Positions 6,750-24,346 of a stretch of DNA of 64,000 nucleotides are shown piece by piece (the stretch's first letter is position 1; every line of letters starts with the position of its first letter). Origin of the DNA: Anaerolineae bacterium (GTDB taxonomy: Bacteria; Chloroflexota; Anaerolineae; B4-G1; SLSP01); NCBI GenBank assembly GCA_016931315.1, contig JAFGFB010000199.1:882-64881 (forward strand). Direction: 5' to 3'. The notes beneath the pieces are model-generated. The model was not told where the DNA came from and did no database searches. It saw nothing but the letters and a program-made list of their open reading frames with translations. The translations under genes and the position numbers were made by a program.

Positions 6750-7769
6750 ATGGCATCCGAATTACCGCAGAAGAAACGTTTCATCAGCCTCAGGGTCAAG
6801 TTGTTGGTGGGTTTCACGCTATTATTTATGGTTGTTTTTGCCATCGCGTTTTATTGGTTCTATACCTTCGCGACCGATGTGGCTATGCGTCAGATTGAGG
6901 AGGATATGCTCACTACGTTGGAAGGGGGTTTAAAGGGTATTGATGGCGACGCCTTCGTTGCATTGGCGGAAGAGGCTGAACTGCGCGACGATGGTTTGAG
7001 TGATGATCCTCGCTATTGGGACCATATGGCCTGGATTGAGACCATCCACGATTTGGAACCTCGCGCTAATCCTTACAGTTGGGTTCGAGGCGATCCGAAT
7101 GTACAAAATGAGGTACTCTTCATTGGTGATATTCTGCGCGTGACCCAACCTGAGAATGCCACAGTTTTCCGTGAGCCTTATATTACTCAGGGCTCAATGA
7201 TTACCGGTATGTTAACGCTGTGGGAAGACCTGGAGCCTTACCAGGATGATTGGGGGCACTGGATTTCCGCCTATGCGCCTATCCTCAACTCTGCCGGAGA
7301 ATCGGTAGGGGGTTTAGGCATTGATTTTCGTGCTGATTATGTCTACCAGGTTCAGGATTCAATCGAGGATCGCATTCTGATTTCTTTTGCCATCACCTAT
7401 CTGGCGCTGTTTGTATTGGTATATCTCATTTCTCGCACCTTAACGGGGCCTATCATTTCTTTGACGGGTGTTGCTCGTGGGGTTGCTGACGGAAATTACG
7501 ATCAGGATATTAGCAAACTCTACGGTGGCAAGACTCAGGACGAGGTAGATGCGCTGGCACAAGTCTTCGAATTGATGGTGAGTAAAGTCCGTGCTCGTGA
7601 GGAGGGGCTCAAGCGCCAGGTGCAGCAGCTACGAATCGAGATTGACGAAGTGAAGCGAACCCGGCAGGTAGAGGAGATCACCGGATCGGACTATTTTACG
7701 ACACTCAAAGAGAAAGCGCGCGTGCTCCGTCAGCAAAGCGTGACCGATGGTGGAGTTGAAGAGAGCTGA
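6750..7769 (+). CDS. Membrane sensor: TM1 - periplasmic domain (~170 aa) - TM2 - HAMP-like segment - conserved C-terminal coiled-coil module ending in an EEITGSDYF motif
   Basis: Hydrophobic helices LLVGFTLLFMVVFAIAFYWFYTF and ILISFAITYLALFVLVYLISRTL. A HAMP-like stretch TGPIISLTGVARGVADGNYDQD...LAQVFELMVSKV follows. The C-terminus QVQQLRIEIDEVKRTRQVEEITGSDYFTTLKEKARVLRQQ has a paralogous copy in the gene at 14392-15114. Confidence 0.6.
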   Translation: MASELPQKKRFISLRVKLLVGFTLLFMVVFAIAFYWFYTFATDVAMRQIEEDMLTTLEGGLKGIDGDAFVALAEEAELRDDGLSDDPRYWDHMAWIETIHDLEPRANPYSWVRGDPNVQNEVLFIGDILRVTQPENATVFREPYITQGSMITGMLTLWEDLEPYQDDWGHWISAYAPILNSAGESVGGLGIDFRADYVYQVQDSIEDRILISFAITYLALFVLVYLISRTLTGPIISLTGVARGVADGNYDQDISKLYGGKTQDEVDALAQVFELMVSKVRAREEGLKRQVQQLRIEIDEVKRTRQVEEITGSDYFTTLKEKARVLRQQSVTDGGVEES

Positions 7770-7835: not shown

Positions 7836-8612
7836 ATGTCCAAAATTATATCTATCCATTCTTTCCGTGGCGGTACGGGGAAATCTAACATCTCCGCGAA
7901 CGTCGCTTCACAGCTGGCGCAGCGTGGCAATCGCGTGGGCGTCATTGATACCGATATCCAATCCCCAGGTATCCACGTTCTCTTTGGCATGGACGAGGAG
8001 CAGATTGACAAGTCGCTCAACGATTACCTGTGGGGGCGCTGCAATATCGAGGATACTGCCTACAATGTCAGCGCGCGCATTGGCAAGGGTGAGGTCATTG
8101 TCATGGGGGCGGATATCTATTTGATTCCCTCTAGCATTCGCGCTGGGGAAATCGCCCGCGTCTTGCGCGAGGGTTATGACGTCAGTATGCTGAATGAGGG
8201 CTTCCGTGCCCTGGTGAAGCGTCTCAAACTCGACTATCTCGTTATTGATACCCATCCGGGCCTGAATGAGGAAACGTTGCTCTCTATCGCTATCTCCGAT
8301 ATCCTCTTTATCATCCTGCGCCCCGATCAGCAAGACTTCCAGGGAACCGCGGTGACGGTAGATGTTGCGCGTAAGCTGGAAGTGCCGCATCTCTTCCTGG
8401 TCATTAACAAAGCGCTTTCCTCCTATGATTTCGACGACCTGAAGAAAAACGCCGAACAAATTTACGACGCCCCTGTAGCTGCGATCCTGCCGCTATCTGA
8501 GGATGTGGCTCGTCTGCAATCCACAGATATCTTCTCGCTCCGTTTCCCGGACCATCCTGTCTCCGCCGCTATTCGGCAGATTGTCGGGTATGTTGAGGCA
8601 ATTGGGAAATGA
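7836..8612 (+). CDS. MinD/ParA-superfamily P-loop ATPase
   Basis: Deviant Walker A SIHSFRGGTGKSNISANVASQLAQRG, with Arg in place of the usual signature Lys. It is followed by a DTD motif and the general MinD/ParA fold pattern. Strong GAGGAGG RBS upstream. Confidence 0.8.
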   Translation: MSKIISIHSFRGGTGKSNISANVASQLAQRGNRVGVIDTDIQSPGIHVLFGMDEEQIDKSLNDYLWGRCNIEDTAYNVSARIGKGEVIVMGADIYLIPSSIRAGEIARVLREGYDVSMLNEGFRALVKRLKLDYLVIDTHPGLNEETLLSIAISDILFIILRPDQQDFQGTAVTVDVARKLEVPHLFLVINKALSSYDFDDLKKNAEQIYDAPVAAILPLSEDVARLQSTDIFSLRFPDHPVSAAIRQIVGYVEAIGK

Positions 8613-8834: not shown

Positions 8835-9227
8835 GTGGGACTCTTCAAACATTTGCAAGATGAGGTTCAGGAGCGCGAGAAGCGCGAGGGTATTACCCTG
8901 GCTGACTTGCTGGAACTCGACCCCCCGCTGCGTCGTGTGATGAATCGGGTGACTCGCTATGGGGAGATGACGGTGCCTCAAGCTGTCGAACTCCTGGAGG
9001 ATACACCGGAGAATATCACTCAGATGTTGAATACTCTCGCCGAGAAAGGCTATCTCCTGCGGGAGAAGGGTCCAGAAGGCTGGGTTTACCGCGTGCATTT
9101 GGCTCGTAAGCGTGGTACATCGTTGCCGCCGGGCGTGTGGTCTGCATTGGGGAGCCAGCTACAACCGGAGCCCTCGGATGCTCCTGACGAAGACTCTGAA
9201 GACATCGTGGAAACTGAAACGCCCTAA
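8835..9227 (+). CDS. Winged-helix (MarR/ArsR-like) DNA-binding protein with acidic C-terminal tail
   Basis: ITLADLLELDPPLRRVMNRVTRYGEMTVPQAVELLEDTPENITQMLNTLAEKGYLLRE...WVYRVHL matches helix-turn-helix plus wing topology. The C-terminus is PEPSDAPDEDSEDIVETETP. Confidence 0.5.
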   Translation: MGLFKHLQDEVQEREKREGITLADLLELDPPLRRVMNRVTRYGEMTVPQAVELLEDTPENITQMLNTLAEKGYLLREKGPEGWVYRVHLARKRGTSLPPGVWSALGSQLQPEPSDAPDEDSEDIVETETP

Positions 9228-9262: not shown

Positions 9263-10462
9263 GTGGAAAGAGCTATGCAGATTTTTCTGGCTGCTTTGAT
9301 TGCGGGAGGCATCCCTCTCATCTTCCTTTTCGTCATCTATGCACTTGATCTCTATGCCTCCCGCACTTTTCGCCTGGTGCTTGCCTGTTTTGCCTGGGGC
9401 GCCATTGGCGGCGTTGGACTTGCCTATCTTTTCAATACCCGTGTGGCGGTTCCCTTTATTCAGCGCTATCGCCTTGACCTGCTATGGCTCTATGTGGTTT
9501 TTGCGCCTATCGCTGAGGAGCTTTTCAAATCTCTCTCCCTCTTCCCTGTATCTCGTCACCGTGATTTTACCTATTTTGTTGATGGCGCGATTTATGGTTT
9601 TGCTTCCGGTATCGGTTTTTCCATTACTGAGAACTTCCTCTATATTAGCCAGGCTCCCAGATCGGCAATCTTGCTGGCGCTTATCCGTGCTTTCTCTACC
9701 TGTTTGATGCACGGCAGCGCTGCTGCCCTGGTGGGCGTGGCGGTGGGGCGTTTCCGTTTCCGCCGCGGGGTTCATCGCGGGCTGGCCGTTGTGGGCGGGT
9801 GGGGAGCCGCTATTCTGCTGCACGCTTTCTTCAATGCGATTGGGCAGGCAAATCTTGTGGGCTCTGGTCTGGTAACGCCACTATCTGTTGCCATCGGACT
9901 TCTGGGCGTGGGCTTGATTGCCTTTTTCATCAACCGGGGTCTCCAAGAAGAGGGCAAGTGGATGCTGGAGACTCTGGATCGCCAGGTTGAGGTGAGCGGC
10001 GCCGAGGCCCGCGCTGCCCAGTCTTTTGCCACGCTGGAAGAGCTTTTGGCGCCGTTGGCAGTTACCTTTCCTGAGAAAGCGGAGCAGATCGAGGCTCTGG
10101 TGTTGCATCAGGCGAAATTCGGCATCAAACGGAAGATTTTCCAGCAGCTAGAAGCGCCGGAAGCCAGGACGCGTTTGCAGCAAGAGCTGGATGAGATGCA
10201 GGTGGAGATGGAAACGTTGCGCCGGCAGATTGGCAGCTATGCCATGATTTATGTGCGCAGCGTTTTTCCTGAGGGGCGTGTAAATGTCTGGTCGAACCTG
10301 GAACTTGTAGTGCGCCAGGACCAACCTGCCGATGTGGCGCGTTGGACTACACTGCTCACGGCAAAGGATGCTGCTGGTGCTGCGCCGTCAGCGCGCAGTA
10401 TCTTTGGGCGCCTGGGCGAAATTCAGCAAGAGAAACACCAGGGGAATGACGCCGGCCAATGA
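9263..10462 (+). CDS. PrsW-family intramembrane metalloprotease with ~170-aa cytoplasmic coiled-coil extension
   Basis: Polytopic N-terminal half carrying PrsW signature motifs (APIAEELFKS = EExxK; GFSITENFLY; MHGSAAALVG = HxxxxA). The C-terminal half is rich in coiled-coil-like heptads (QQELDEMQVEMETLRRQIG). Confidence 0.65.
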   Translation: MERAMQIFLAALIAGGIPLIFLFVIYALDLYASRTFRLVLACFAWGAIGGVGLAYLFNTRVAVPFIQRYRLDLLWLYVVFAPIAEELFKSLSLFPVSRHRDFTYFVDGAIYGFASGIGFSITENFLYISQAPRSAILLALIRAFSTCLMHGSAAALVGVAVGRFRFRRGVHRGLAVVGGWGAAILLHAFFNAIGQANLVGSGLVTPLSVAIGLLGVGLIAFFINRGLQEEGKWMLETLDRQVEVSGAEARAAQSFATLEELLAPLAVTFPEKAEQIEALVLHQAKFGIKRKIFQQLEAPEARTRLQQELDEMQVEMETLRRQIGSYAMIYVRSVFPEGRVNVWSNLELVVRQDQPADVARWTTLLTAKDAAGAAPSARSIFGRLGEIQQEKHQGNDAGQ

Positions 10463-13400
10463 ACCGGTGGCGGGTTGTGCTGCCGCCACTCTACCTGCCG
10501 TGCTGCAAGATTACCTTTCTCCTTCTTTGTGGGAGCAGCTGCAAGCAGAACCCACTCGCCGAGGGTTGTTGCTTGATGCTCTCACTGCCTTGCATTCCTT
10601 TGTTTACTTGCTTTCCACGTACCTGCCCCATCCGCTTGTTGAAGCGCTTAAGCGCGACCCAGCGCCTGGCCAGATTGGCGGCGAGTGTTTGGAGGGCAGT
10701 CTGCTCTTTGCCGATGTGAGCGGCTTTACGGCGCTTTCGGAGCGCCTGGCAGCTCAGGGATCCATCGGCGTTGAAACCCTTACCGGGCACATCAACACTT
10801 ACTTTGACGCCATGGTCCAGGTCCTGGCGCGTTCTTCCGGCGCGTTGCTCAAGTTCGCGGGAGATGCCCTGCTCGCCTATTTTCCCTTGCAGGCCAATGG
10901 ACGACACGCGCAATGGGCCAGTCGCGCGGCGCAGCGCATGATGCGCGTCATGGGCGCTTTTGCCGCTTTGGAAACCCCCGCCGGACCGGTCGCGCTTCGC
11001 ATGAAGATAGGGCTGGCTACCGGTCCCTTTGTGGCAGTAAAAGCCGGTGTGCCGGAGCGGATGGAGTACGTCGTTTTTGGTGAGACGGTCTCCCGTACCC
11101 TGGCGCTGGAGGGCACGTTGAGCGCTGGACAAATTGGTGTAGATGCAGCGACTGCGGCGCTCCTGGCGCCAGCGCAAATTCAACCTCATACCGGCGATTT
11201 CTTCCTCTTTGCCTTGGATAACGCCGAAGAACACGCCGATTTTGAAATTCAGGTTGAAGGTCAGCGGCGCGGTCGCAGCAGCGGCTTGTTGATGGCTTCA
11301 CATGAGGAACTTCACGCACAGATTACCCTCGCGCTGCGCCAGATTCAGGCCTTGAGTGCTTTCTTGTCGGCACCGCTTGTGGAATTGTTGTTGGTGCACG
11401 CCCATCAGCGACAGCTGCCGGCGGAAAATCGTCCCGCCGCAATTCTCTTCTTCAATCTGACCGGGATCGAGCCGTTGTGGGATTCCGCGAATCCACACAC
11501 ATTGCCTCGCGCCACACAGGTTTTGAATGCTTGTTTCAACGTAGTGCAGACAAGTGTCGCCCGCTACGGAGGCATAATTAGCCGTATTGACCCTTATAAG
11601 GTGGGGTCCAAAATCCTTGCCATATTTGGTGCGCCCGTAGCGCATGAGGATGATCCCCTGCGTGCGGTGCGGGCTGCCCTCGATGCGCGGGCCGGGCTCG
11701 CCGGGTTGCTTGCGCGTTGGGAGCGCGATTCTACCCTGGCCGCAGACCCGGCCTGCGGCCAGGACGCAGGGATTGCGCTGCAGGCGGGCATCGCTTACGG
11801 ACCCACATTTGCGGGGCCTGTTGGTGCGGCAATTCGCCGTGAATATACGCTCATGGGAGACGACGTCAATCTTGCTGCGCGGCTAATGGGCGCGGCGCAA
11901 CCGGGGCAGATTCTTGTAGCTCCCGCCGTAGCTGTCTCCATTCAAGCCGCCGTAAAACTGACGGCGCTAGCTCCGTTGCGGCTCAAGGGAAAGCGCGATC
12001 CGGTCCCCGTTTTTCAGGTTGAAAGTCTGGGGCATGATCCCTTGTCACGCCGGTTGGCGCTTCGAGGGCCACTTTTGGGACGGGAAGCTGAGTTGGGACT
12101 GGCACGTGCAGCCTTGCAAAAAGCGCTCTCTGGGAAGGGGAGCCTGTTGAGTGTGGTCGGCGAACCAGGGATTGGAAAGAGCCATTTCGCCGATACGTTG
12201 GCGGCTGAGGCGCGGGCCCAGGGTGCCAGTGTACACCTTAGCACATGTGCCGCTTATGCACTTGCCACTCCTTATGCCCCGTGGATTGCTCTCATCCGGA
12301 CGCTGGCTCATCTTGCACCCGAACTGGCGGGTGAGGCTGCTGCGCGGCAGCTTTTGGAATGGCTCGCGCGTGAGGGCTGCCTTGCCGAAGATATCTCCGC
12401 GCCTCTATTGCAGTTGTTCGGTTTGCCTGTGCTTTCGCTGGGAAACATACCCACCTTCGGAGAATCTGTGAATTCGCCCGTACCAGTTCGTCCCGGACTC
12501 TTTCAGCGTCTTGGCGCGCAGGTTGCGCCATCCCCTGCGGCTCCTGTCAGGGCTTCGCTCTGGCAGCTGGCTCGTGAGCGACAGCATGTGCCTGGCGGCA
12601 GCGATACATGGCGTCAACTGGAGCGCCGTATCGCCGACCGTGTGCAGACCCGGCTTTTCAATGCCATGGAGCATTTGTGGACTGCGTTAGCACAGAAGTC
12701 GCCCCGCGTGTTGATTTTTGAGGATGTTCACTGGCTTGATGCGCCTTCGCGCAATTTGCTGACGCATTTAGTCGGTGCGCTCTCTGATTATCCGGTGTTA
12801 TTTTTGATCACCTGCCGCCCGGCAGAGAGGGCGGGGAACACTTTTTCCGCACAGGTGATTTCTTTAGGGCCTCTGACGCCGAAAGCAGTTGAGGCTTTGG
12901 TGTCTCATCTACTGGGTGCAGATAGTCTTTCGGGTGAACTACTGGCGCTAATGCCCACGTTGATGGCGAAGACTGGCGGAAATCCGTTGTTTATCGAGGA
13001 ACTCTGTGCCTGGTTTCGGCGCAACGGGGTCCAGGATCTTGAAGCCGGATTGCGGCACTCGTTGACTCTCCAGGAACTGGTGCTAAGCCGTTTGGATACG
13101 CTCTCACATGTGGAGGGGATGGCGGTGCGCGCCGCATCGGTCGTGGGTAACGATTTTCAGGTGTCTGAACTGGCTGCGCTGTTGCACGAGACTGTGCCCA
13201 CTCACTTGTCGCCGGCCCTTGAGGGGTTGGAGAACGCCCGTTTCACTTTTGCTATGCCGCAGGTGAATGTTGAGCATGGCGCCGTGGCACATTCCTTTTG
13301 CCAAACCCTGGTTCGCGAGATGCTCTATGACTCGCAACCTCTTGTCCGGCGCCGTCAACTTCATGCCCGGTTGGCGGAGTATCTTCGCACCAATCATGCA

Positions 13401-14363
13401 GCCGACCTCGCGGCTGTGGCGGAAGAGCTCGCTTATCACTATCTTCAGGCCAGCGCCTGGCTTGAAGCGAGCCGTTTCGCCCTTCTGGCAGGGACCAAGG
13501 CGCAATCCCGCGCTGCCTACGAGGCGGCTCTGGAGCATTACACGGCTGCGGAGCAGGCATTGACGCATCTTTCGGGGGCGAAAAATGCGACGCCGGAGGC
13601 ACGTGATTTATGGGGGCGTGTGCGTGTGGGGCAGGGTGATGTGGCATTCCTTCAAGGTCACTTTGAAGCCGCTGGGCAAGCTTATGCTGCGGCGCACCCC
13701 GATTTGCAGGATGCTCCGCAACTACTGGCGCGCGCCGTGTTGGTGCGACCTCTCTTGAAGCCGGGTGTATCCATGCTGGAGATGACGGAGGATGCATGGA
13801 ATGTGCTTGAATCAGCGGGAACGGCGTTACCTGCCATCGCTGCTGTGCTCGCGTGGTTTCACTGGCGTGAGGGCGACCTTCAGGTGGCGTGCAGGTGGGC
13901 AGAACGCGGCAGCCCAAATGCGTTGATGGCGTTCATTGGTGGCGATTTGCAGAAGGCATGGGGCAGCTACCAGGCTGAGAAGGAACTGGCTGGTGCGGCG
14001 TTGGTCGCACTGCAGCTGGCTGAATCTCAGTCTGCACAGGGTGCCGCGAAGTTGTGGTTGGCGCGCGCCACAGAAGATTGGACGCGCGAGGACGACGCTT
14101 GGGGAATGGTGCTGGTGCAATGCAAACAGGCACACCTCCTCCGGCTACAAGGTGATCTTTCGGCTGCTGCTCGGATTGTCGAAGAGGCGCGCTCGTCGTT
14201 GCAGCTGGTATCTGCGCAGGTCTTCGATTCAGAAACGCCTACGGTTGTTCCGGATGCGGGGGATTTTGAAGTCTGCATTCTAGGGCAACGACGCTATGAG
14301 GATATCTTTCATGCTCTGTATCTCTTTAATCTATTGACACCTTTCTCGCCGGAAGTACAATGA
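10446..14363 (+). CDS. Tandem class III adenylate/guanylate cyclase domains + STAND/AAA ATPase + TPR-like helical C-terminus
   Basis: Cyclase domain 1 (LLFADVSGFTALSERL...KFAGDALLAYF). Cyclase domain 2 (AILFFNLTGIEPLW...KILAIFGAPVAHEDDPLRAVRAALD...REYTLMGDDVNLAARLM). P-loop GEPGIGKSHFA and Walker B-like VLIFEDVHWLD. Long alpha-helical C-terminus. The start at 10446 (MTPANEPV) overlaps the PrsW stop by 17 nt; the ORF formally opens at 10332. Confidence 0.8.
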   Translation: MTPANEPVAGCAAATLPAVLQDYLSPSLWEQLQAEPTRRGLLLDALTALHSFVYLLSTYLPHPLVEALKRDPAPGQIGGECLEGSLLFADVSGFTALSERLAAQGSIGVETLTGHINTYFDAMVQVLARSSGALLKFAGDALLAYFPLQANGRHAQWASRAAQRMMRVMGAFAALETPAGPVALRMKIGLATGPFVAVKAGVPERMEYVVFGETVSRTLALEGTLSAGQIGVDAATAALLAPAQIQPHTGDFFLFALDNAEEHADFEIQVEGQRRGRSSGLLMASHEELHAQITLALRQIQALSAFLSAPLVELLLVHAHQRQLPAENRPAAILFFNLTGIEPLWDSANPHTLPRATQVLNACFNVVQTSVARYGGIISRIDPYKVGSKILAIFGAPVAHEDDPLRAVRAALDARAGLAGLLARWERDSTLAADPACGQDAGIALQAGIAYGPTFAGPVGAAIRREYTLMGDDVNLAARLMGAAQPGQILVAPAVAVSIQAAVKLTALAPLRLKGKRDPVPVFQVESLGHDPLSRRLALRGPLLGREAELGLARAALQKALSGKGSLLSVVGEPGIGKSHFADTLAAEARAQGASVHLSTCAAYALATPYAPWIALIRTLAHLAPELAGEAAARQLLEWLAREGCLAEDISAPLLQLFGLPVLSLGNIPTFGESVNSPVPVRPGLFQRLGAQVAPSPAAPVRASLWQLARERQHVPGGSDTWRQLERRIADRVQTRLFNAMEHLWTALAQKSPRVLIFEDVHWLDAPSRNLLTHLVGALSDYPVLFLITCRPAERAGNTFSAQVISLGPLTPKAVEALVSHLLGADSLSGELLALMPTLMAKTGGNPLFIEELCAWFRRNGVQDLEAGLRHSLTLQELVLSRLDTLSHVEGMAVRAASVVGNDFQVSELAALLHETVPTHLSPALEGLENARFTFAMPQVNVEHGAVAHSFCQTLVREMLYDSQPLVRRRQLHARLAEYLRTNHAADLAAVAEELAYHYLQASAWLEASRFALLAGTKAQSRAAYEAALEHYTAAEQALTHLSGAKNATPEARDLWGRVRVGQGDVAFLQGHFEAAGQAYAAAHPDLQDAPQLLARAVLVRPLLKPGVSMLEMTEDAWNVLESAGTALPAIAAVLAWFHWREGDLQVACRWAERGSPNALMAFIGGDLQKAWGSYQAEKELAGAALVALQLAESQSAQGAAKLWLARATEDWTREDDAWGMVLVQCKQAHLLRLQGDLSAAARIVEEARSSLQLVSAQVFDSETPTVVPDAGDFEVCILGQRRYEDIFHALYLFNLLTPFSPEVQ

Positions 14364-14391
14364 CGTGAAGCTGTTACACATAAGGGGTGAA

Positions 14392-15114
14392 ATGATGCTT
14401 GATTCCACGGTACTCAAAAATGTTCCACTGTTTGCCCATCTTTCCGATACCGAGCTGGCGCAATTGCGGGCTGTCTTGACAGAACGGCATTTGAATACGG
14501 GTGACATCCTGTTCAAAATGGGTGAGGCAGGGGAGGAATTGTATATCGTGCGCCAGGGTCGCGTTGCGATCTATGTACCCAACCCTGAAACACCAGGGAA
14601 AGAGCAGCCGATTCGGATTTTCGAGCCTGGAGAGGCGTTAGGCGAGATGGCGTTGATTGACCGGCAACCACGCTCGCTCAGTGCTCGAGCTTTGGAGCCT
14701 GCCGTACTGCTTGCACTCACCGGTGAGGAGTTCCACCGGTTATTAGCTGCGCACCCCCAGCTGGCGCTGAGTGTGATGAGTGGATTGAGTGACCGCATTC
14801 GCTACACGACCGAATTCCTGAGCGAGGTGCGCGGGTGGGTGCAGCGTGTGGCGGCGGGCAAGTATGACCGTGCTGGTAGTGCAAATCAGGATTATGCTGA
14901 TCCTTCGATTGCTGCCCTGGCTGCCGAGTTTACCCAGATGGCAGTCCAGGTGCAGCAGCGCGAGGAAGCACTGCGCCAAGAGGTGCTGCAATTGCGTATC
15001 GAGATTGACGATTCCAAGCGCAAACGCCACGTGGAAGAAATCACCGGTTCGGATTATTTCCAATCTCTCCAGCAACGGGCACGTCGTCTCCGCGACGAAA
15101 AGGGTGAGGAGTAA
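14392..15114 (+). CDS. Cyclic-nucleotide-binding (CAP/Crp-type cNMP) domain protein with the same C-terminal HAMP-like + EEITGSDYF module as the 6750 sensor
   Basis: cNMP-binding signature VPLFAHLSDTELAQLRAVLTERHLNTGDILFKMGEAGEELYIVRQGRVAIY...FEPGEALGEMALIDRQPRSLSARA. The C-terminal 100 aa align residue-for-residue with the C-terminus of the 6750-7769 product. Start 1 nt after the upstream cyclase stop; the internal ATG at 14392 follows AAGGGGTGA. Confidence 0.75.
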   Translation: MMLDSTVLKNVPLFAHLSDTELAQLRAVLTERHLNTGDILFKMGEAGEELYIVRQGRVAIYVPNPETPGKEQPIRIFEPGEALGEMALIDRQPRSLSARALEPAVLLALTGEEFHRLLAAHPQLALSVMSGLSDRIRYTTEFLSEVRGWVQRVAAGKYDRAGSANQDYADPSIAALAAEFTQMAVQVQQREEALRQEVLQLRIEIDDSKRKRHVEEITGSDYFQSLQQRARRLRDEKGEE

Positions 15115-15178
15115 CCGCGTCCTGTCTCGTGTCTTATAGTGCAGTTTGCGCAATCGGTTTATTGGGGAGGCGGTAGCC

Positions 15179-18100
15179 ATGCAATGTTCAGCATGCGGTA
15201 ATCTCAATCCAGGCACAGCCCGTTTTTGTATGTATTGCGGGGCAGCCCTTGTCAAGGGTAAGGTCTGTGCGCGTTGCTTCACGTTATTGCCCGTAGAAGC
15301 GCGTTATTGTTTTCATTGTGGCGCCTTTCAGGGTGAATCCGAGGGTCTCAGCCCCACACCGGTGACGCCAGCGGCAAGCACCACGTCGAGAGTTTCCCCC
15401 GTGGTCTCCATCCCCCGCGAACCCATCATGTCTGAAGCTGAGCCGGTAGCCTCTTTGGACGTTGCTTTGCCGCCTGAGCGTTCATTGGAAGCGTTGCGCA
15501 ATGACTTGCGGCGTTATTTGCCGGACTCGCTCTATGAACCGCTGGAGCGCCGCCCCAAGGATCGGGACATCCTCGCGGTGCGGGATCATCTTAGCGCTCT
15601 GTTGAGCACGGTGAAGACCTACCTCCCAGGTCCTGTGGTGTTAGCGCCGCAACCGGCCGGTGAGCCAGCTGGGGGCATGTTGCAAGGCGTGTTTCTCTTT
15701 GGTGATGTTTCGGGCTTCACGCCGCTCTCCGAACGTTTGAAGCCTCTGGGACATGAGGGCGCTGAGCGGATTACCGGCATCATCAATGCCTTGTTCTCAC
15801 AATTGGTGCGGGTGCTTTTTGCTCATGGTGGGACTTTGTTGAAGTTTGGTGGTGACGCGCTGTTGGGGCTGTTCCCCGCAGGTAACAAGGCTGAGCTTGC
15901 GGCAGGGGTGTTGCGCGCAACGCAGGCTGCCTTGGAGATGCAGGCGGTCATGAAGCGCGATGAGTTTGCGGCTATTGATGCCCTTGGTGAGACTCAAGCT
16001 CTGAAAATCAAGTGCGGCATCTCTGCCGGGCCTTATTTTGCCGCCCATATCGGGACCTCTCCGCAACCCGACTCAGGCGATTTGGGTTCGATGGCGTACG
16101 TGACTACCGGACACACGGTGAATCTGGCTGAAGAGTGTGAGGGGCATGCCAATCCGGGTGAAGTGGTTTTGCCGACAGCGGTTTGTACTCTGGTCGAAGG
16201 ACAACTAGAGACTGCACCGGTGACCAAGTCTCCGGACCCGGCTTTTTTTCGGGTGTCGAAGGTGTTGGTGGCTCTTCCGGAGGTTCCGGAGCAACTGTTT
16301 GCCGCTGAGCCGCCTGAGGGGTCTCCTTTGGCGCAAATCACTTACCTCGCCGACCGCTTGAACCGGCTGACTCCCTATCTATCCGTCGAGCTTCTCAGCC
16401 GTATTGCCCTTAACCCGCGTGATGCGCGCATTGCACCCGACCACCGTCCCGTTACTGTGATGTTTGTGAATTATGTGGGCATCAGCGACCTGATCGAGGA
16501 CCTGGGGGAAAGCCATCCTCAGATCATCGTGGAACAGCTCAATGCTTACTTCATGTGGATGGCGCAGGTCGTGGAGAAATATGAGGGGGCGTTGGCGCGT
16601 ATGGATCAATACGCCGTGGGTGACCGGTTGGTGATCTTTTTCGGCGCGCCGCGCGCGCACGAGGATGACCCTGTGCGCGCGGTCTATACGGCGCTGGAGA
16701 TGCAAGCCCTTACTCGGGAGCGTTTTTCGGCTCTCCAAACCCCCTTTGGTATCTATCGCTTCCGCCAGCGTATTGGTATCAATACTGGCACGCTCTTCGC
16801 GGGAAATGTGGGCGCGTCTGACCTGCGTCAGGAATATACGCTCATGGGTGATGATATCAATATGGCGGCGCGGCTGATGTCGTATGCAGAGTGGGGTAAA
16901 ATCTACATTAGCAACAAAACTGAAGAACGGGTGCGCCCCTTCTTTGAGTTGAGCGACCGTTTCGATTTGAAGGTGAAGGGCAAGGCGATTCTCATCCCAA
17001 CCTATAAAGTGCTGGGACCGCGTGACGAGGTCGGACCTACACGGGGCCTGGAAAGTGGTGAATCCCCGCTTATCGGGCGTCAGGAGGCATTGGCACAGTT
17101 GCAGCAGGTCGGGCAGCGTTTCCTCGGCGGGCGCGGGCAGATTGTGGCATTGTTGGGAAATAGCGGCTTGGGCAAATCCCGGTTGTTACGGGAATTGCAG
17201 CGGTGGTATGCCGGGCAGCCTGAGGCGGCAGAGTTGCGCTGGATCGAAGCGCGCCCTTTTTCCTTTAGCGAGCACATTAACTACTGGCTGGCGCGCGAAA
17301 TGCTACGCACTATGCTGGGATTGGCTCCGGATGCTGATGAGAACGAAATACTCTTCCAACTCTGGGAGCAGACCGAAAGCCTGCTGGGCAAAGAAAAAGC
17401 CCGCGAAATTGCGCCTTTTTTGGCCTATCTGATGAATTTGCCGTTGGAGGGTGTTTGGGCGCAGGAGGTCAAAGACCTTAGCCCGCAGGTGCGCCAGAAG
17501 GAGATTCTCTGGGCGGCGCGGGAATTTTTTAGCGCCGCTGCCCGGCGCGGACCGCTGTTGATTGCTCTGGATGACCTGCATTGGGCGGATGAAGCATCGC
17601 TGGCGTTGGTGGAAACTTTGTTGGCGGTGACCGATCAGGCGCCGTTGCTGTTTTGCCTGGCCTCCCGCCCTACACGCGATAAGCGCAGCTGGCAATTACG
17701 CAATGTCGCCGCTGGCAATTTTCCCCATCGCTATACTGAGGTGCAACTCCAACCCCTGCTTCGTGAGCAGAGTCAGAGCTTGCTTCAGGCGTTATTGCCT
17801 GGCGCCCAATTCTCTGAGGCGACGTTGGTAGATATTTTCGATAAATCTGCCGGAAACCCATTCTATCTGGAAGAAGTGGTACGCTCCCTTATTGAAAGCG
17901 GCGCTGTGGCACCGGAGGCGGTGCCGCTATCAGGTGTTGAGGGGGCTGAGAGCAAGGCGCAGAGCTTAAGACGATGGCATGTGACCTCCCGTATTGAGCA
18001 GATTACGGTTCCCACGAGCCTCCATGCTGCGATTGTCTCGCGTATTGACCGGTTGACGGAGGATGCCCGACAGGGGTTGCAGATGGCTGCGGTCCTCGGG

Positions 18101-19489
18101 CGACAGTTCCGCGTTGACTTATTGCGTGGTGTCTCACAGGCTAATGAAGAAGTGGATTTGTGGTTGGCGCAGTTGGAGCGTGGAGGACTGCTGCGCTCAA
18201 CTGAGACGGGGGACATGCCCACTTACGCTTTCCCAGATACTCTGGTCCAGGAGGTAGCCTACGACAGCATTTTGGTACAGAATCGCAGTCAGTGGCATCG
18301 TCGAGTGGGTGAGGCGTTAGAGGCATTAAGCGAGGATGGTTCGGTACAACTACAGCAGTTGCTGGCATATCATTTCAGTCGCAGTGATGATGGCGCAAAA
18401 GCAGTCAAGTATTTGCAACTGGCAGCAAAACAGGCTCGCGAAGACTACGCCAATGAGACAGCAATCGCCTATTATCAGCAGCTTCTGGAATGGCAGCAAA
18501 AAGCCCATGATTTAGCGGGGCAGGCACAGGCGCGCTATGCGATGGGGGTTATGGCTTATGAAATCGGCGATTATGACCGAGCGACCCCATGGTTGGAGGA
18601 GGCGACCGCGCTCTACCGGCAACTGGAGGATGAAGCCAATGAGGCGTGGAGTGCTATGTATCAGGGAATGGTGGCTCTGAAGCGGGGTTTCTATGCGGAA
18701 GCGACGGTGTATCACCAGCGTGCGCTGGAGCTGGCTCGAAAGCGTGCTGACGGATTCCAGGAAGGTATTCACCTGACTAACCTGGCGCGGGTGACGCTGC
18801 GTTTGGGCGATTATCCGCAAGCCTTGGAACAATTCCATGCCTCTTTGGCTTTGAAGCAGCAGAACGCCGATGTGACTGGACAGGCCTTTGCCTGGTTCTA
18901 TTTGGGATTGACCCATCTCTTCTGTGGTCAGTATGAAGCTGCGGGTGAGGCTTTCGAGGCCTCGTTGGCATTATGGCAGCAAGTGCCCAAGAATGAACGC
19001 GGTGTCTCCTATTGTCAGTATGGGTTGGGGCTGTTGGCATTGCAGCAAGAACGTTATGCTGAGGCTGTCGGCTATTTCCGGCGCGCGCATGCCACCAGTG
19101 TCAAGTTAGTGTTGAAGGCAGAGATTATCGAGAATCTCTCCTTTCTGGGACGCGCAGAATTGGGGTTGGGGCACTGTGAGGCAGCTCTGGCAGTCTCAAA
19201 AGAGGCGATAGACTTGTTGCGTACTCAGCGTGACGTCGAGGCTGTTCAGAGCATTTATCTGAACCATTTTACCATTCTGAGCGCCTGCGGCGCCCCTGAT
19301 GCCACAATGGCATTGATGAAGGCCCATGAGATTGTGATGGAGCAGGCGCAACATCTTGAGACTGAATTTGCACGGGCGCGATTTTTAGAGCAGATTCCTG
19401 CAAACCGGGAGATTCTGTTGGAGGCGCAGCACCAGGGGGATTTACCACCGCATACTCCACTTTCCCCTGTGTCTGACGCGAGCGCTTGA
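15179..19489 (+). CDS. Double zinc-ribbon + tandem class III cyclase domains + STAND/AAA ATPase + TPR repeats
   Basis: N-terminus CSACGNLNPGTARFCMYCGA...CARCFTLLPVEARYCFHCGA (two zinc ribbons). Cyclase domains (VFLFGDVSGFTPLSERL...KFGGDALLGLF; VTVMFVNYVGISDL...RLVIFFGAPRAHEDDPVRAV...EYTLMGDDINMAARLM). P-loop GNSGLGKSRLL and LLIALDDLHWADEASL. Clear TPR-like repeats near the C-terminus. GGGGAGG RBS before the ATG at 15179. Confidence 0.85.
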   Translation: MQCSACGNLNPGTARFCMYCGAALVKGKVCARCFTLLPVEARYCFHCGAFQGESEGLSPTPVTPAASTTSRVSPVVSIPREPIMSEAEPVASLDVALPPERSLEALRNDLRRYLPDSLYEPLERRPKDRDILAVRDHLSALLSTVKTYLPGPVVLAPQPAGEPAGGMLQGVFLFGDVSGFTPLSERLKPLGHEGAERITGIINALFSQLVRVLFAHGGTLLKFGGDALLGLFPAGNKAELAAGVLRATQAALEMQAVMKRDEFAAIDALGETQALKIKCGISAGPYFAAHIGTSPQPDSGDLGSMAYVTTGHTVNLAEECEGHANPGEVVLPTAVCTLVEGQLETAPVTKSPDPAFFRVSKVLVALPEVPEQLFAAEPPEGSPLAQITYLADRLNRLTPYLSVELLSRIALNPRDARIAPDHRPVTVMFVNYVGISDLIEDLGESHPQIIVEQLNAYFMWMAQVVEKYEGALARMDQYAVGDRLVIFFGAPRAHEDDPVRAVYTALEMQALTRERFSALQTPFGIYRFRQRIGINTGTLFAGNVGASDLRQEYTLMGDDINMAARLMSYAEWGKIYISNKTEERVRPFFELSDRFDLKVKGKAILIPTYKVLGPRDEVGPTRGLESGESPLIGRQEALAQLQQVGQRFLGGRGQIVALLGNSGLGKSRLLRELQRWYAGQPEAAELRWIEARPFSFSEHINYWLAREMLRTMLGLAPDADENEILFQLWEQTESLLGKEKAREIAPFLAYLMNLPLEGVWAQEVKDLSPQVRQKEILWAAREFFSAAARRGPLLIALDDLHWADEASLALVETLLAVTDQAPLLFCLASRPTRDKRSWQLRNVAAGNFPHRYTEVQLQPLLREQSQSLLQALLPGAQFSEATLVDIFDKSAGNPFYLEEVVRSLIESGAVAPEAVPLSGVEGAESKAQSLRRWHVTSRIEQITVPTSLHAAIVSRIDRLTEDARQGLQMAAVLGRQFRVDLLRGVSQANEEVDLWLAQLERGGLLRSTETGDMPTYAFPDTLVQEVAYDSILVQNRSQWHRRVGEALEALSEDGSVQLQQLLAYHFSRSDDGAKAVKYLQLAAKQAREDYANETAIAYYQQLLEWQQKAHDLAGQAQARYAMGVMAYEIGDYDRATPWLEEATALYRQLEDEANEAWSAMYQGMVALKRGFYAEATVYHQRALELARKRADGFQEGIHLTNLARVTLRLGDYPQALEQFHASLALKQQNADVTGQAFAWFYLGLTHLFCGQYEAAGEAFEASLALWQQVPKNERGVSYCQYGLGLLALQQERYAEAVGYFRRAHATSVKLVLKAEIIENLSFLGRAELGLGHCEAALAVSKEAIDLLRTQRDVEAVQSIYLNHFTILSACGAPDATMALMKAHEIVMEQAQHLETEFARARFLEQIPANREILLEAQHQGDLPPHTPLSPVSDASA

Positions 19490-19749
19490 AGCTGTTGTCC
19501 CTGGCATGAAAGGCACGCTACTTTTTGAGGGCACCTTTTAACCTGGTGCAAAGTAAGGCGATTTACGCGCAAATGTTCTTCCTTTGAGTGTTTTTGCGGC
19601 GGGGTGCGACCATGTCGCAAAACACCATTTTCTCCCGCGTCTGTAGGGCGTCTGAAACTATCGTTTGTGACTGGAATACACCCCACTTTTTTGTGAATGC
19701 TCAGGTTCCCGTAGCGGGGCGCGAGTTTTGGGCTAGAACCTGTTCAAAA

Positions 19750-19808
19750 GCGTGTTTTGGGTTGCCGCGCTAAATGCCGTACTCGGCGCCGCGGCAACCA
19801 AAACACGC
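19750..19808 (+). promoter_or_regulatory. Long near-perfect inverted repeat (19-20 bp arms, ~20-nt spacer) in the cyclase/rpoC intergenic region
   Basis: GCGTGTTTTGGGTTGCCGCG at 19750-19769 pairs with CGCGGCAACCAAAACACGC at 19790-19808, with one bulged G. No U-tract follows, so it is not a canonical intrinsic terminator. It is either a factor-binding palindrome or a stable RNA hairpin. Confidence 0.4.
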
Positions 19809-19882
19809 TCCGAAATTGCGACTTCAGTTGCCTTTTGTCATGGCAAGCGGGGAACGTTGAATACTGACACTTTTTTCGATGG

Positions 19883-19910
19883 TTGACTTTTGAATAGATG
19901 CGGCTATAAT
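19883..19910 (+). promoter_or_regulatory. Sigma-70-type promoter TTGACT-16-TATAAT for rpoC
   Basis: -35 TTGACT at 19883-19888 and -10 TATAAT at 19905-19910, about 130 nt upstream of the rpoC ATG. The leader contains a perfect 18-bp palindrome TATGGCTCGCGAGCCATA at 19998-20015. Confidence 0.5.

Positions 19911-20041: not shown

Positions 20042-24346
<4,305 letters not shown>

Follow-up and report, generated by a model that had tools for sequence, protein, structure and literature searches.

Two probable bacterial relatives of soluble adenylyl cyclase encoded on either side of a cyclic nucleotide-binding receptor in an Anaerolineae genome

The stretch of DNA analysed here, referred to as the window, comprises 64,000 nucleotides of contig JAFGFB010000199.1 from an Anaerolineae bacterium (assembly GCA_016931315.1). 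At positions 10446-19489 of the window three closely packed genes lie on the forward strand and code, in this order, for a large protein with two cyclase domains (P1), for a receptor that binds cyclic nucleotides (cyclic nucleoside monophosphates, cNMPs) and for a second large protein with two cyclase domains (P2). Taken jointly with the whole explanation developed below, it is likely that P1 and P2 are bacterial nucleotide cyclases of the soluble adenylyl cyclase (sAC) type, that is, ADCY10-like cyclases of class IIIb. A database protein from an Anaerolineae metagenome-assembled genome (MAG; protein P0001) matches P1 at 100% identity and has the same start methionine. Between P1 and P2 the identity is 28% across 1128 aligned positions, which bears out an earlier reading, made from the letters and open reading frames of the DNA only (the sequence-only reading), that they are paralogues with the cNMP receptor encoded between them. 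The stop of the gene for a PrsW-family protease upstream overlaps the start of P1 by 17 nt, and the receptor gene has an alternative GTG start at 14365, the gap between P1 and the receptor being 2-31 nt.

The tandem class III cyclase layout that the sequence-only reading had given for both proteins was recovered with Pfam, as all four cyclase domains scored above the PF00211 cut-off of 21.9 bits (Table 1). The same is true of the P-loop module that follows the second cyclase domain (C2), which in both proteins is an AAA_16 NTPase of the STAND type (signal transduction ATPases with numerous domains), with the Walker A motifs GEPGIGKS in P1 and GNSGLGKS in P2 and with VLIFEDVHWLD and LLIALDDLHWAD as the Walker-B-like motifs of the pair. 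The two zinc ribbons that had been read at the start of P2 were found by the DZR model at residues 3-48, and all eight of their cysteines are invariant in the 13 P2 orthologues, which come from 13 loci and are 49-92% identical. Two other statements, that both proteins end in an array of tetratricopeptide repeats (TPRs) and that the first cyclase domain (C1) is the more divergent one, held for P2 but not for P1, in which Pfam found no TPR and C1 scored higher than C2.

Table 1. Features of the locus and of its surroundings, in window coordinates unless another locus is named.
Feature	Position	Strand	Evidence or remark
P1, sAC-type cyclase (probable), 1305 aa: C1-C2-STAND NTPase-helical tail	10446..14363	+	Open reading frame, Pfam
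P1 C1 cyclase domain	10698..11180	+	PF00211, 56.4 bits
P1 C2 cyclase domain	11433..11999	+	PF00211, 48.3 bits
P1 AAA_16/STAND P-loop NTPase	12072..12803	+	PF13191, E=8e-22; Walker A at residues 572-579, Walker-B-like motif at 755-765
P1 C-terminal helical region, presumed degenerate TPR-like sensor	12804..14360	+	No Pfam TPR match
cNMP-binding receptor, 239 aa: N-terminal cyclic nucleotide-binding (CNB) domain and C-terminal helical output module	14395..15114	+	PF00027, E=3e-22
Receptor C-terminal module: HAMP-AS2-like segment and 'LRIEID...EITxSDYF...LR' helix	14848..15111	+	
P2, sAC-type cyclase (probable) with zinc ribbons, 1436 aa	15179..19489	+	Open reading frame, Pfam
P2 double zinc ribbon, four CxxC pairs	15185..15322	+	PF12773, E=3e-8
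P2 C1 cyclase domain	15695..16198	+	PF00211, 33.7 bits
P2 C2 cyclase domain	16439..16987	+	PF00211, 73.9 bits
P2 AAA_16/STAND NTPase	17066..17653	+	PF13191, E=3e-21; Walker A at residue 660
P2 canonical TPR array	18455..19378	+	TPR_12, E=1e-28; also TPR_10, TPR_2, TPR_1, TPR_MalT
PrsW-family intramembrane protease, conserved neighbour 5' of P1	9263..10462	+	PF13367, E=2e-31
Membrane HAMP sensor, C-terminal module as in the cNMP receptor	6750..7769	+	
ParA/MinD-like ATPase	7836..8612	+	Recurs with small open reading frame 8835-9227 beside module-bearing sensors
ParA/MinD-like ATPase and small protein beside module carriers	7836-8612 and 8835-9227; L002 3287-4627; L085 2066-3203; L089 6438-7571; L084 10548-11155		
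Strong hairpin, then small hairpin and U-tract; probable end of a transcription unit before rpoC	19749..19840	+	dG -46.6 kcal/mol, z=-5.5

The sequence-only reading had compared P1 and P2 with the mycobacterial Rv0386-type proteins only, whereas their closest known relatives are sAC (ADCY10) and the sAC-like cyclases of Chloroflexus. A family profile made from 119 members matched human sAC (4cm2/4clf) with an E-value of 7e-42 in one colinear stretch, profile positions 96-496 against sAC residues 37-419, and P2 alone aligned from residue 146 to 574 with sAC residues 17-424, again in a single stretch. The AlphaFold2 model of P1 residues 1-560 had a predicted local distance difference test score (pLDDT) of 88.4 and a predicted template modelling (TM) score of 0.86, and when this model was compared with the PDB by Foldseek the top 24 matches were all human sAC (E about 2e-29, target TM-score 0.75-0.79), the next matches being the intramolecular C1/C2 dimer of AC9. 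Thus, by profile as well as by fold, C1, linker and C2 are colinear in one chain with those of human sAC, and the predicted structure agrees with the intramolecular pseudo-heterodimer that had been proposed. The beta2-3 loop of C2 aligns without gaps between the family and sAC, being of equal length, and in the canonical class III cyclases CyaB and Cya2 it is 4 residues shorter. The Walker A motif lies about 45-55 residues after C2 in P1 and P2, as it does in human sAC, and the order that follows, a STAND P-loop and then a helical or putative TPR region, also appears to be matched by the tails of P1 and P2 when the described domain order of full-length mammalian sAC is used for comparison (P-loop at 516-523, putative TPRs at 870-1098). 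What separates P1 and P2 from human sAC is that the identity is only about 20%, that P2 has an N-terminal double zinc ribbon, that no evidence of a haem domain was found for P1 and P2, and that some residues of C1 and C2 differ as described below.

The architecture itself is not new, as the sAC type is already known and is common in Chloroflexota. The sAC-like cyclases of Chloroflexus aurantiacus, a member of the same phylum, were reportedly described by Kobayashi, Buck and Levin in 2004 as having two catalytic domains and a long sAC-like C-terminus, one of them being stimulated by bicarbonate; the comparison with P1 and P2 made here is one of described architecture. The linked cNMP receptor, an Arg variant in C2 and the zinc-ribbon paralogue set the present locus apart from the Chloroflexus cyclases as described, and we know of no description of any of these for them. 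The mycobacterial proteins Rv0386, Rv1358 and Rv2488c share with P1 and P2 the domain order class III cyclase, AAA_16/STAND NTPase, TPR region. However, they have one cyclase domain, which makes an obligate homodimer, and end in a LuxR helix-turn-helix (HTH), whereas P1 and P2 have two complementary cyclase domains and, as had been noted before, no GerE/LuxR HTH could be found in either of them with Pfam, the C-terminal 500 aa being searched to E<=1. The NTPase-plus-TPR module is also shared with the STAND regulators MalT/LAL and AfsR and with the TOMM kinase/cyclase fusion TIGR03903; AfsR and MalT TPR models match P2, and TIGR03903 matches P1 and P2 below its cut-off (183 and 291 bits versus 706). 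Unlike in these regulators, the effector in P1 and P2 is a tandem cyclase and not a DNA-binding or kinase domain.

When the residues listed as functional in human sAC (PMC12867704) were located in P1 and P2 and followed through an alignment of 121 sequences that are 28-87% identical, C1 was found to have the equivalents of the metal Asp pair, K95 and K144, and C2 was found to have, as in human sAC, an Asn at the lost metal site and the Thr/Asn/Arg set (Table 2). The Thr of this set corresponds to T405, which contacts adenine in sAC (PMC12250328); a Thr in place of the substrate Asp is the signature of class IIIb. In both proteins C1 is without the Thr and Arg positions, and its Asn position is S216 in P1 and N315 in P2, the latter being invariant in the 13 P2 orthologues. 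In C2 the first metal Asp is lost in P1 and P2 and the second is lost too in P1 only, since C2 of P2, unlike that of human sAC, keeps an Asp there. Because the residues of C1 and C2 are complementary and invariant, one composite active site is predicted for each protein, in which C1 would supply the two metal-binding Asp and the pyrophosphate Lys, and C2 would supply the base-contacting Arg and Thr and the transition-state Asn and Arg. Judged by these residues, each protein is a C1/C2 pseudo-heterodimer with a single complete active site and, pseudo-symmetric to it, a degenerate pocket, both composite, and the degenerate pocket would keep the C1 Lys that is equivalent to human K95. The proposal that C1 is a divergent regulatory half-site was therefore given up, as C1 carries the invariant metal Asp pair and Lys while C2 carries the Thr/Asn/Arg set; neither domain is catalytic alone and the two are complementary halves. 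Likewise, EDDP had been taken as the transition-state motif, but 'HEDDP' is a structural motif of C2 and the transition-state residues are the Asn and Arg given in Table 2.

Table 2. Equivalents of functional residues of human sAC in P1 and P2 and their conservation in the 121-sequence alignment.
Human sAC	Role and domain	P1	P2	Conservation
D47	Metal Asp, C1	D90	D176	121/121
D99	Metal Asp, C1	D140	D226	121/121
K95	Bicarbonate-site Lys, C1	K136	K222	119/121
K144	Pyrophosphate Lys, C1	K187	K278	121/121
T405	Adenine contact, C2	T468	T554	121/121
N412	Transition state, C2	N475	N561	121/121
R416	Transition state, C2	R479	R565	121/121
N298	Lost first metal site, C2	N337	N431	Asn in 118/121
C342	Second metal position, C2	S388	D482	Ser/Thr in P1 family; Asp in P2 orthologues

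The reaction would most likely be the conversion of ATP to cAMP. By analogy, the STAND NTPase together with the helical or TPR tail probably gates or autoinhibits the catalytic core upon binding of a ligand or a partner protein, and the zinc ribbons of P2 may be a separate input or an anchoring point. In mammals full-length sAC is the less active form, by about 3-fold, and a 2025 study of the purified full-length enzyme found no isoform-specific regulator.

Several points weigh against this interpretation. C2 resembles single-domain bacterial class IIIb cyclases about as closely as it resembles C2 of sAC, and the tandem could have come from an independent duplication and not from ancestry in common with sAC. 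The last 506 aa of P1 gave no Pfam TPR match even at E<=1; several P1 orthologues do have TPR_12 or TPR_MalT matches, mostly faint. For full-length mammalian sAC no effect of nucleotides was found, and STAND gating is argued by analogy. Finally, in the gapless C2 alignment the position of Lys334, which is a Lys in human sAC, is R380 in P1 and R474 in P2 and is Arg in 120 of the 121 sequences, so that ATP, although favoured as the most likely substrate from the residues of the site, is left unproven by the Arg at the base position. Dictyostelium, moreover, has an sAC homologue that is a guanylyl cyclase. These last observations favour the alternative that the fold and the single composite site are as described and the invariant Arg shifts the specificity so that the product is cGMP or another cNMP, and the PDB matches of the CNB domain of the receptor, which include both PKA and PKG, do not discriminate between cAMP and cGMP. 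We consider a product other than cAMP unlikely, however: the Thr equivalent to T405 is invariant, the Glu/Cys or Glu/Gly pair for guanine is absent from P1 and P2, and the relatives in Chloroflexus are reported as adenylyl cyclases. Furthermore, 10 of the 12 sequences of a third Chloroflexota subfamily, which is 30-34% identical to P1 and P2, carry Lys at this position, and therefore the Arg is read as a conservative Lys/Arg exchange in which the two look interchangeable. Less likely still is that P1 and P2 are catalytically dead scaffolds whose cyclase domains are only nucleotide-binding or dimerisation modules of a STAND regulator. It is true that each domain alone is without part of the catalytic set and that a class III cyclase-like protein which binds ATP and has no cyclase activity (PDB 6yii) came up at rank 35 in Foldseek, but what C1 is without is exactly what C2 supplies and vice versa, and the invariance of the set among 121 sequences at 28-87% identity points to selection on catalysis, and on these grounds the pseudo-enzyme reading was rejected.

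Whether the two cyclases sense bicarbonate is a separate matter. The bicarbonate site of human sAC consists of Lys95 and the Arg176 switch (PMC12867704, PMC12250328), and animal sACs that are without K95 or R176 are insensitive to bicarbonate (PMC12867704). The K95 equivalent is kept almost throughout the family (Table 2), but the Arg176 position is Leu in P1 and Leu or Met in the P1 family, and Glu in P2 (E318) and Glu or Asp in its orthologues. Since the Arg176 switch is absent, activation of P1 and P2 by bicarbonate through the human mechanism is not expected, as far as can be judged from these residues. P1 and P2 could still be sensors of bicarbonate or CO2 in which inorganic carbon binds to the degenerate pocket and raises the activity, and the retained Lys and the class IIIb Thr signature would fit with this. 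Moreover, a response to inorganic carbon is reported for every prokaryotic class IIIb cyclase that has been assayed, one from Chloroflexus among them, and the class IIIb/sAC-like cyclases of Chloroflexus are cited as bicarbonate-responsive producers of cAMP. With the loss of the Arg set against this, we hold bicarbonate sensing to be a serious but doubtful possibility, and sAC-type cyclases that make cAMP under the control of their STAND/TPR tail to be the better explanation.

The cyclic nucleotide made by such cyclases would be read by the adjacent, tightly linked receptor. The N-terminal part of the receptor has the canonical CNB fold and the Glu and Arg of the phosphate-binding cassette, as in CRP/FNR and MloK1-type proteins, and in its cassette, GEMALID.QPRS, G83, M85, A86, D89 and R93 are invariant. 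The CRP/FNR models of NCBIfam cover only residues 13-153, and no HTH could be found with Pfam and NCBIfam models; unlike CRP/FNR and MloK1-type proteins, the receptor has no HTH, channel or kinase output and ends instead in an unannotated helical module. A transcription factor of the CRP/FNR type was rejected as its identity, as the C-terminal HTH is missing. In the AlphaFold2 model the C-terminal part of the receptor forms long helices whose confidence is low, at a pLDDT of about 50. The module is without a model in Pfam and NCBIfam, and a homologue search with the 70-aa tail of the receptor gave no match. Over its last ~85 residues the receptor shares 52% identity with the end of the HAMP sensor encoded in the window. 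An exhaustive search of representative sequences recovered the module from about 1400 representative clusters, and in nearly all cases it forms the very end of the protein; the domain upstream of it was HAMP in 60 of 90, and Cache, receiver, CNB and GAF domains were also found there. Its consensus is RE..LKQQV..LRIEID..KR..QV.EITESDYFQ.LQ.KA..LR over ~65-85 aa, with the two copies of the window at 14848-15111 and 7509-7769. Since the receptor has no DNA-binding domain and has a tail in common with sensors, it probably signals by protein-protein contact, through its C-terminal helix to a partner, and the module may be a protein-docking output.

Beside carriers of the module, in the window and at several other, independent loci (Table 1), a ParA/MinD-like ATPase, 60-75% identical between loci, recurs together with a small protein of ~110-143 aa, which is weakly homologous between loci and is possibly a winged-helix protein. 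It is possible that a module carrier, the ATPase and the small protein make up a three-gene signalling unit. On an unrelated metagenomic contig (L087 3589-9105) a 450-aa CNB protein with the module is encoded directly 5' of another cyclase-AAA_16-TPR protein, which connects the module to STAND cyclases independently.

The family to which P1 and P2 belong is large. Among the candidates scored, 2674 proteins were members at E<=1e-10, and at least 587 matches were in species-representative genomes, nearly all of them from Anaerolineae or from other Chloroflexota, with Herpetosiphon and Anaerolinea thermophila among them. P1, P2 and their relatives are ordinary and very common signalling genes of Anaerolineae and other Chloroflexota. 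In public records their labels go no further than 'AAA family ATPase' or 'adenylate/guanylate cyclase domain-containing protein'. The genome scan covered 80 loci, from MAGs of Anaerolineae and other Chloroflexota. Gene order was compared in 57 P1-type loci that had enough downstream sequence to be counted. A full-length homologue of the receptor was encoded directly 3' of the P1-type gene in 44 of the 57; in these 44 receptor-linked loci a zinc-ribbon cyclase of the P2 type was nearby in 15 and PrsW was directly 5' in 12, the gene order differing among genomes. P2-type or third-subfamily cyclases on their own were followed by the receptor in none of 10 cases. The receptor is 50-65% identical to its homologues, compared to 36-42% for the cyclases. 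In a metagenomic protein of 1528 aa (P0046) a P1-type cyclase and the receptor are fused in frame, its residues 1293-1528 being 58% identical to the receptor of the window; this could be a natural fusion or a stop codon lost in assembly.

Other genes were found beside the pair at some of these loci. Relatives have, beside the cyclase-receptor pair, genes for histidine kinases that bind cNMPs (CNB-HisKA-HATPase_c; L002/L003, 18871-20121; L004, 3445-4695), which suggests further read-outs of cAMP, and L002 also has a third cyclase, of 557 aa and a single domain. In a Ca. Promineifilaceae genome (L001 15380-20706) the pair is followed on its 3' side by genes for ThiF/E1, a YukD-like ubiquitin-like protein, UQ_con/E2 and two JAB deubiquitinases, which are a bacterial ubiquitin-like conjugation set, and the same locus has a large dynamin-like GTPase.

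A role in antiviral defence, either as a Pycsar-like cyclase with a cNMP-activated effector or as an Avs-like STAND sensor, is extremely improbable, even though some of the search results could be taken to point there. PADLOC gave PycC matches with E-values from 1e-14 to 2e-20, together with one generic TPR model; the receptor matches the cNMP-binding part of Pycsar TIR effectors; and the STAND and TPR architecture resembles that of Avs. The PADLOC matches, however, cover only the generic cyclase and CNB folds, and no Avs or NLR model was matched. The receptor consists of a CNB domain and a helical tail and has no TIR, transmembrane or nuclease domain, and Pycsar was rejected for this reason; an Avs or bacterial NLR-like protein was rejected as well, as no model matched, the effector is a cyclase and the locus is conserved and non-mobile. 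At least 44 Chloroflexota genomes at species level have kept the pair, some of them with PrsW beside it as well, and in the window it adjoins rpoC and its composition is like that of the surrounding sequence. Because the PADLOC matches are generic and the chromosomal context is conserved, signalling is preferred over defence, and the view of the sequence-only reading that the locus serves signalling is supported.

The transcription of the locus was also considered. The receptor gene is preceded, within the 3' end of P1, by a promoter-like site, TTGACA-16-TACAAT (11/12 matches, 14334-14361), from which, going by its letters, the receptor and P2 may be transcribed. A terminator-like site lies at 19818-19831 between P2 and rpoC, and rpoC has a promoter-like site close to the consensus at 19883-19910. 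The rpoC gene itself (RNA polymerase beta') is directly downstream at 20042-24346, and in the window rpoB is not directly upstream of it. Farther away there is a GH1 gene at 164-1510 and, at 33091-56563, a cluster of glycoside hydrolase (GH) genes with two GH3, two GH38 alpha-mannosidases, a GH2 and an alpha-amylase-like gene; the glycoside hydrolases of the window suggest a glycan-degrading lifestyle. Rfam and tRNA scans of the window found no non-coding feature.

The interest of the locus is modest and lies in the Arg/Lys and missing-Arg176 variants, in the dedicated and conserved receptor and in the unannotated output module. A more far-reaching explanation would be that the cAMP circuit is self-contained, that the ~65-aa 'LRIEID...EITxSDYF' module is a previously undescribed output which docks onto the ParA/MinD-like ATPase and the small winged-helix-like protein, or onto the TPR arrays of the cyclases, and that the cyclases are gated by STAND and not by bicarbonate. 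As a whole we think this rather unlikely, but if it were true the circuit would offer a tractable system in which to study what the C-terminus of sAC does. The bacterial orthologues are abundant and could be used in experiments on the role that the STAND/TPR C-terminus has in mammalian sAC. Finally, as sAC-type enzymes that are naturally without the Arg176 switch and are paired with a receptor, these bacterial cyclases could inform how the regulation of sAC evolved.

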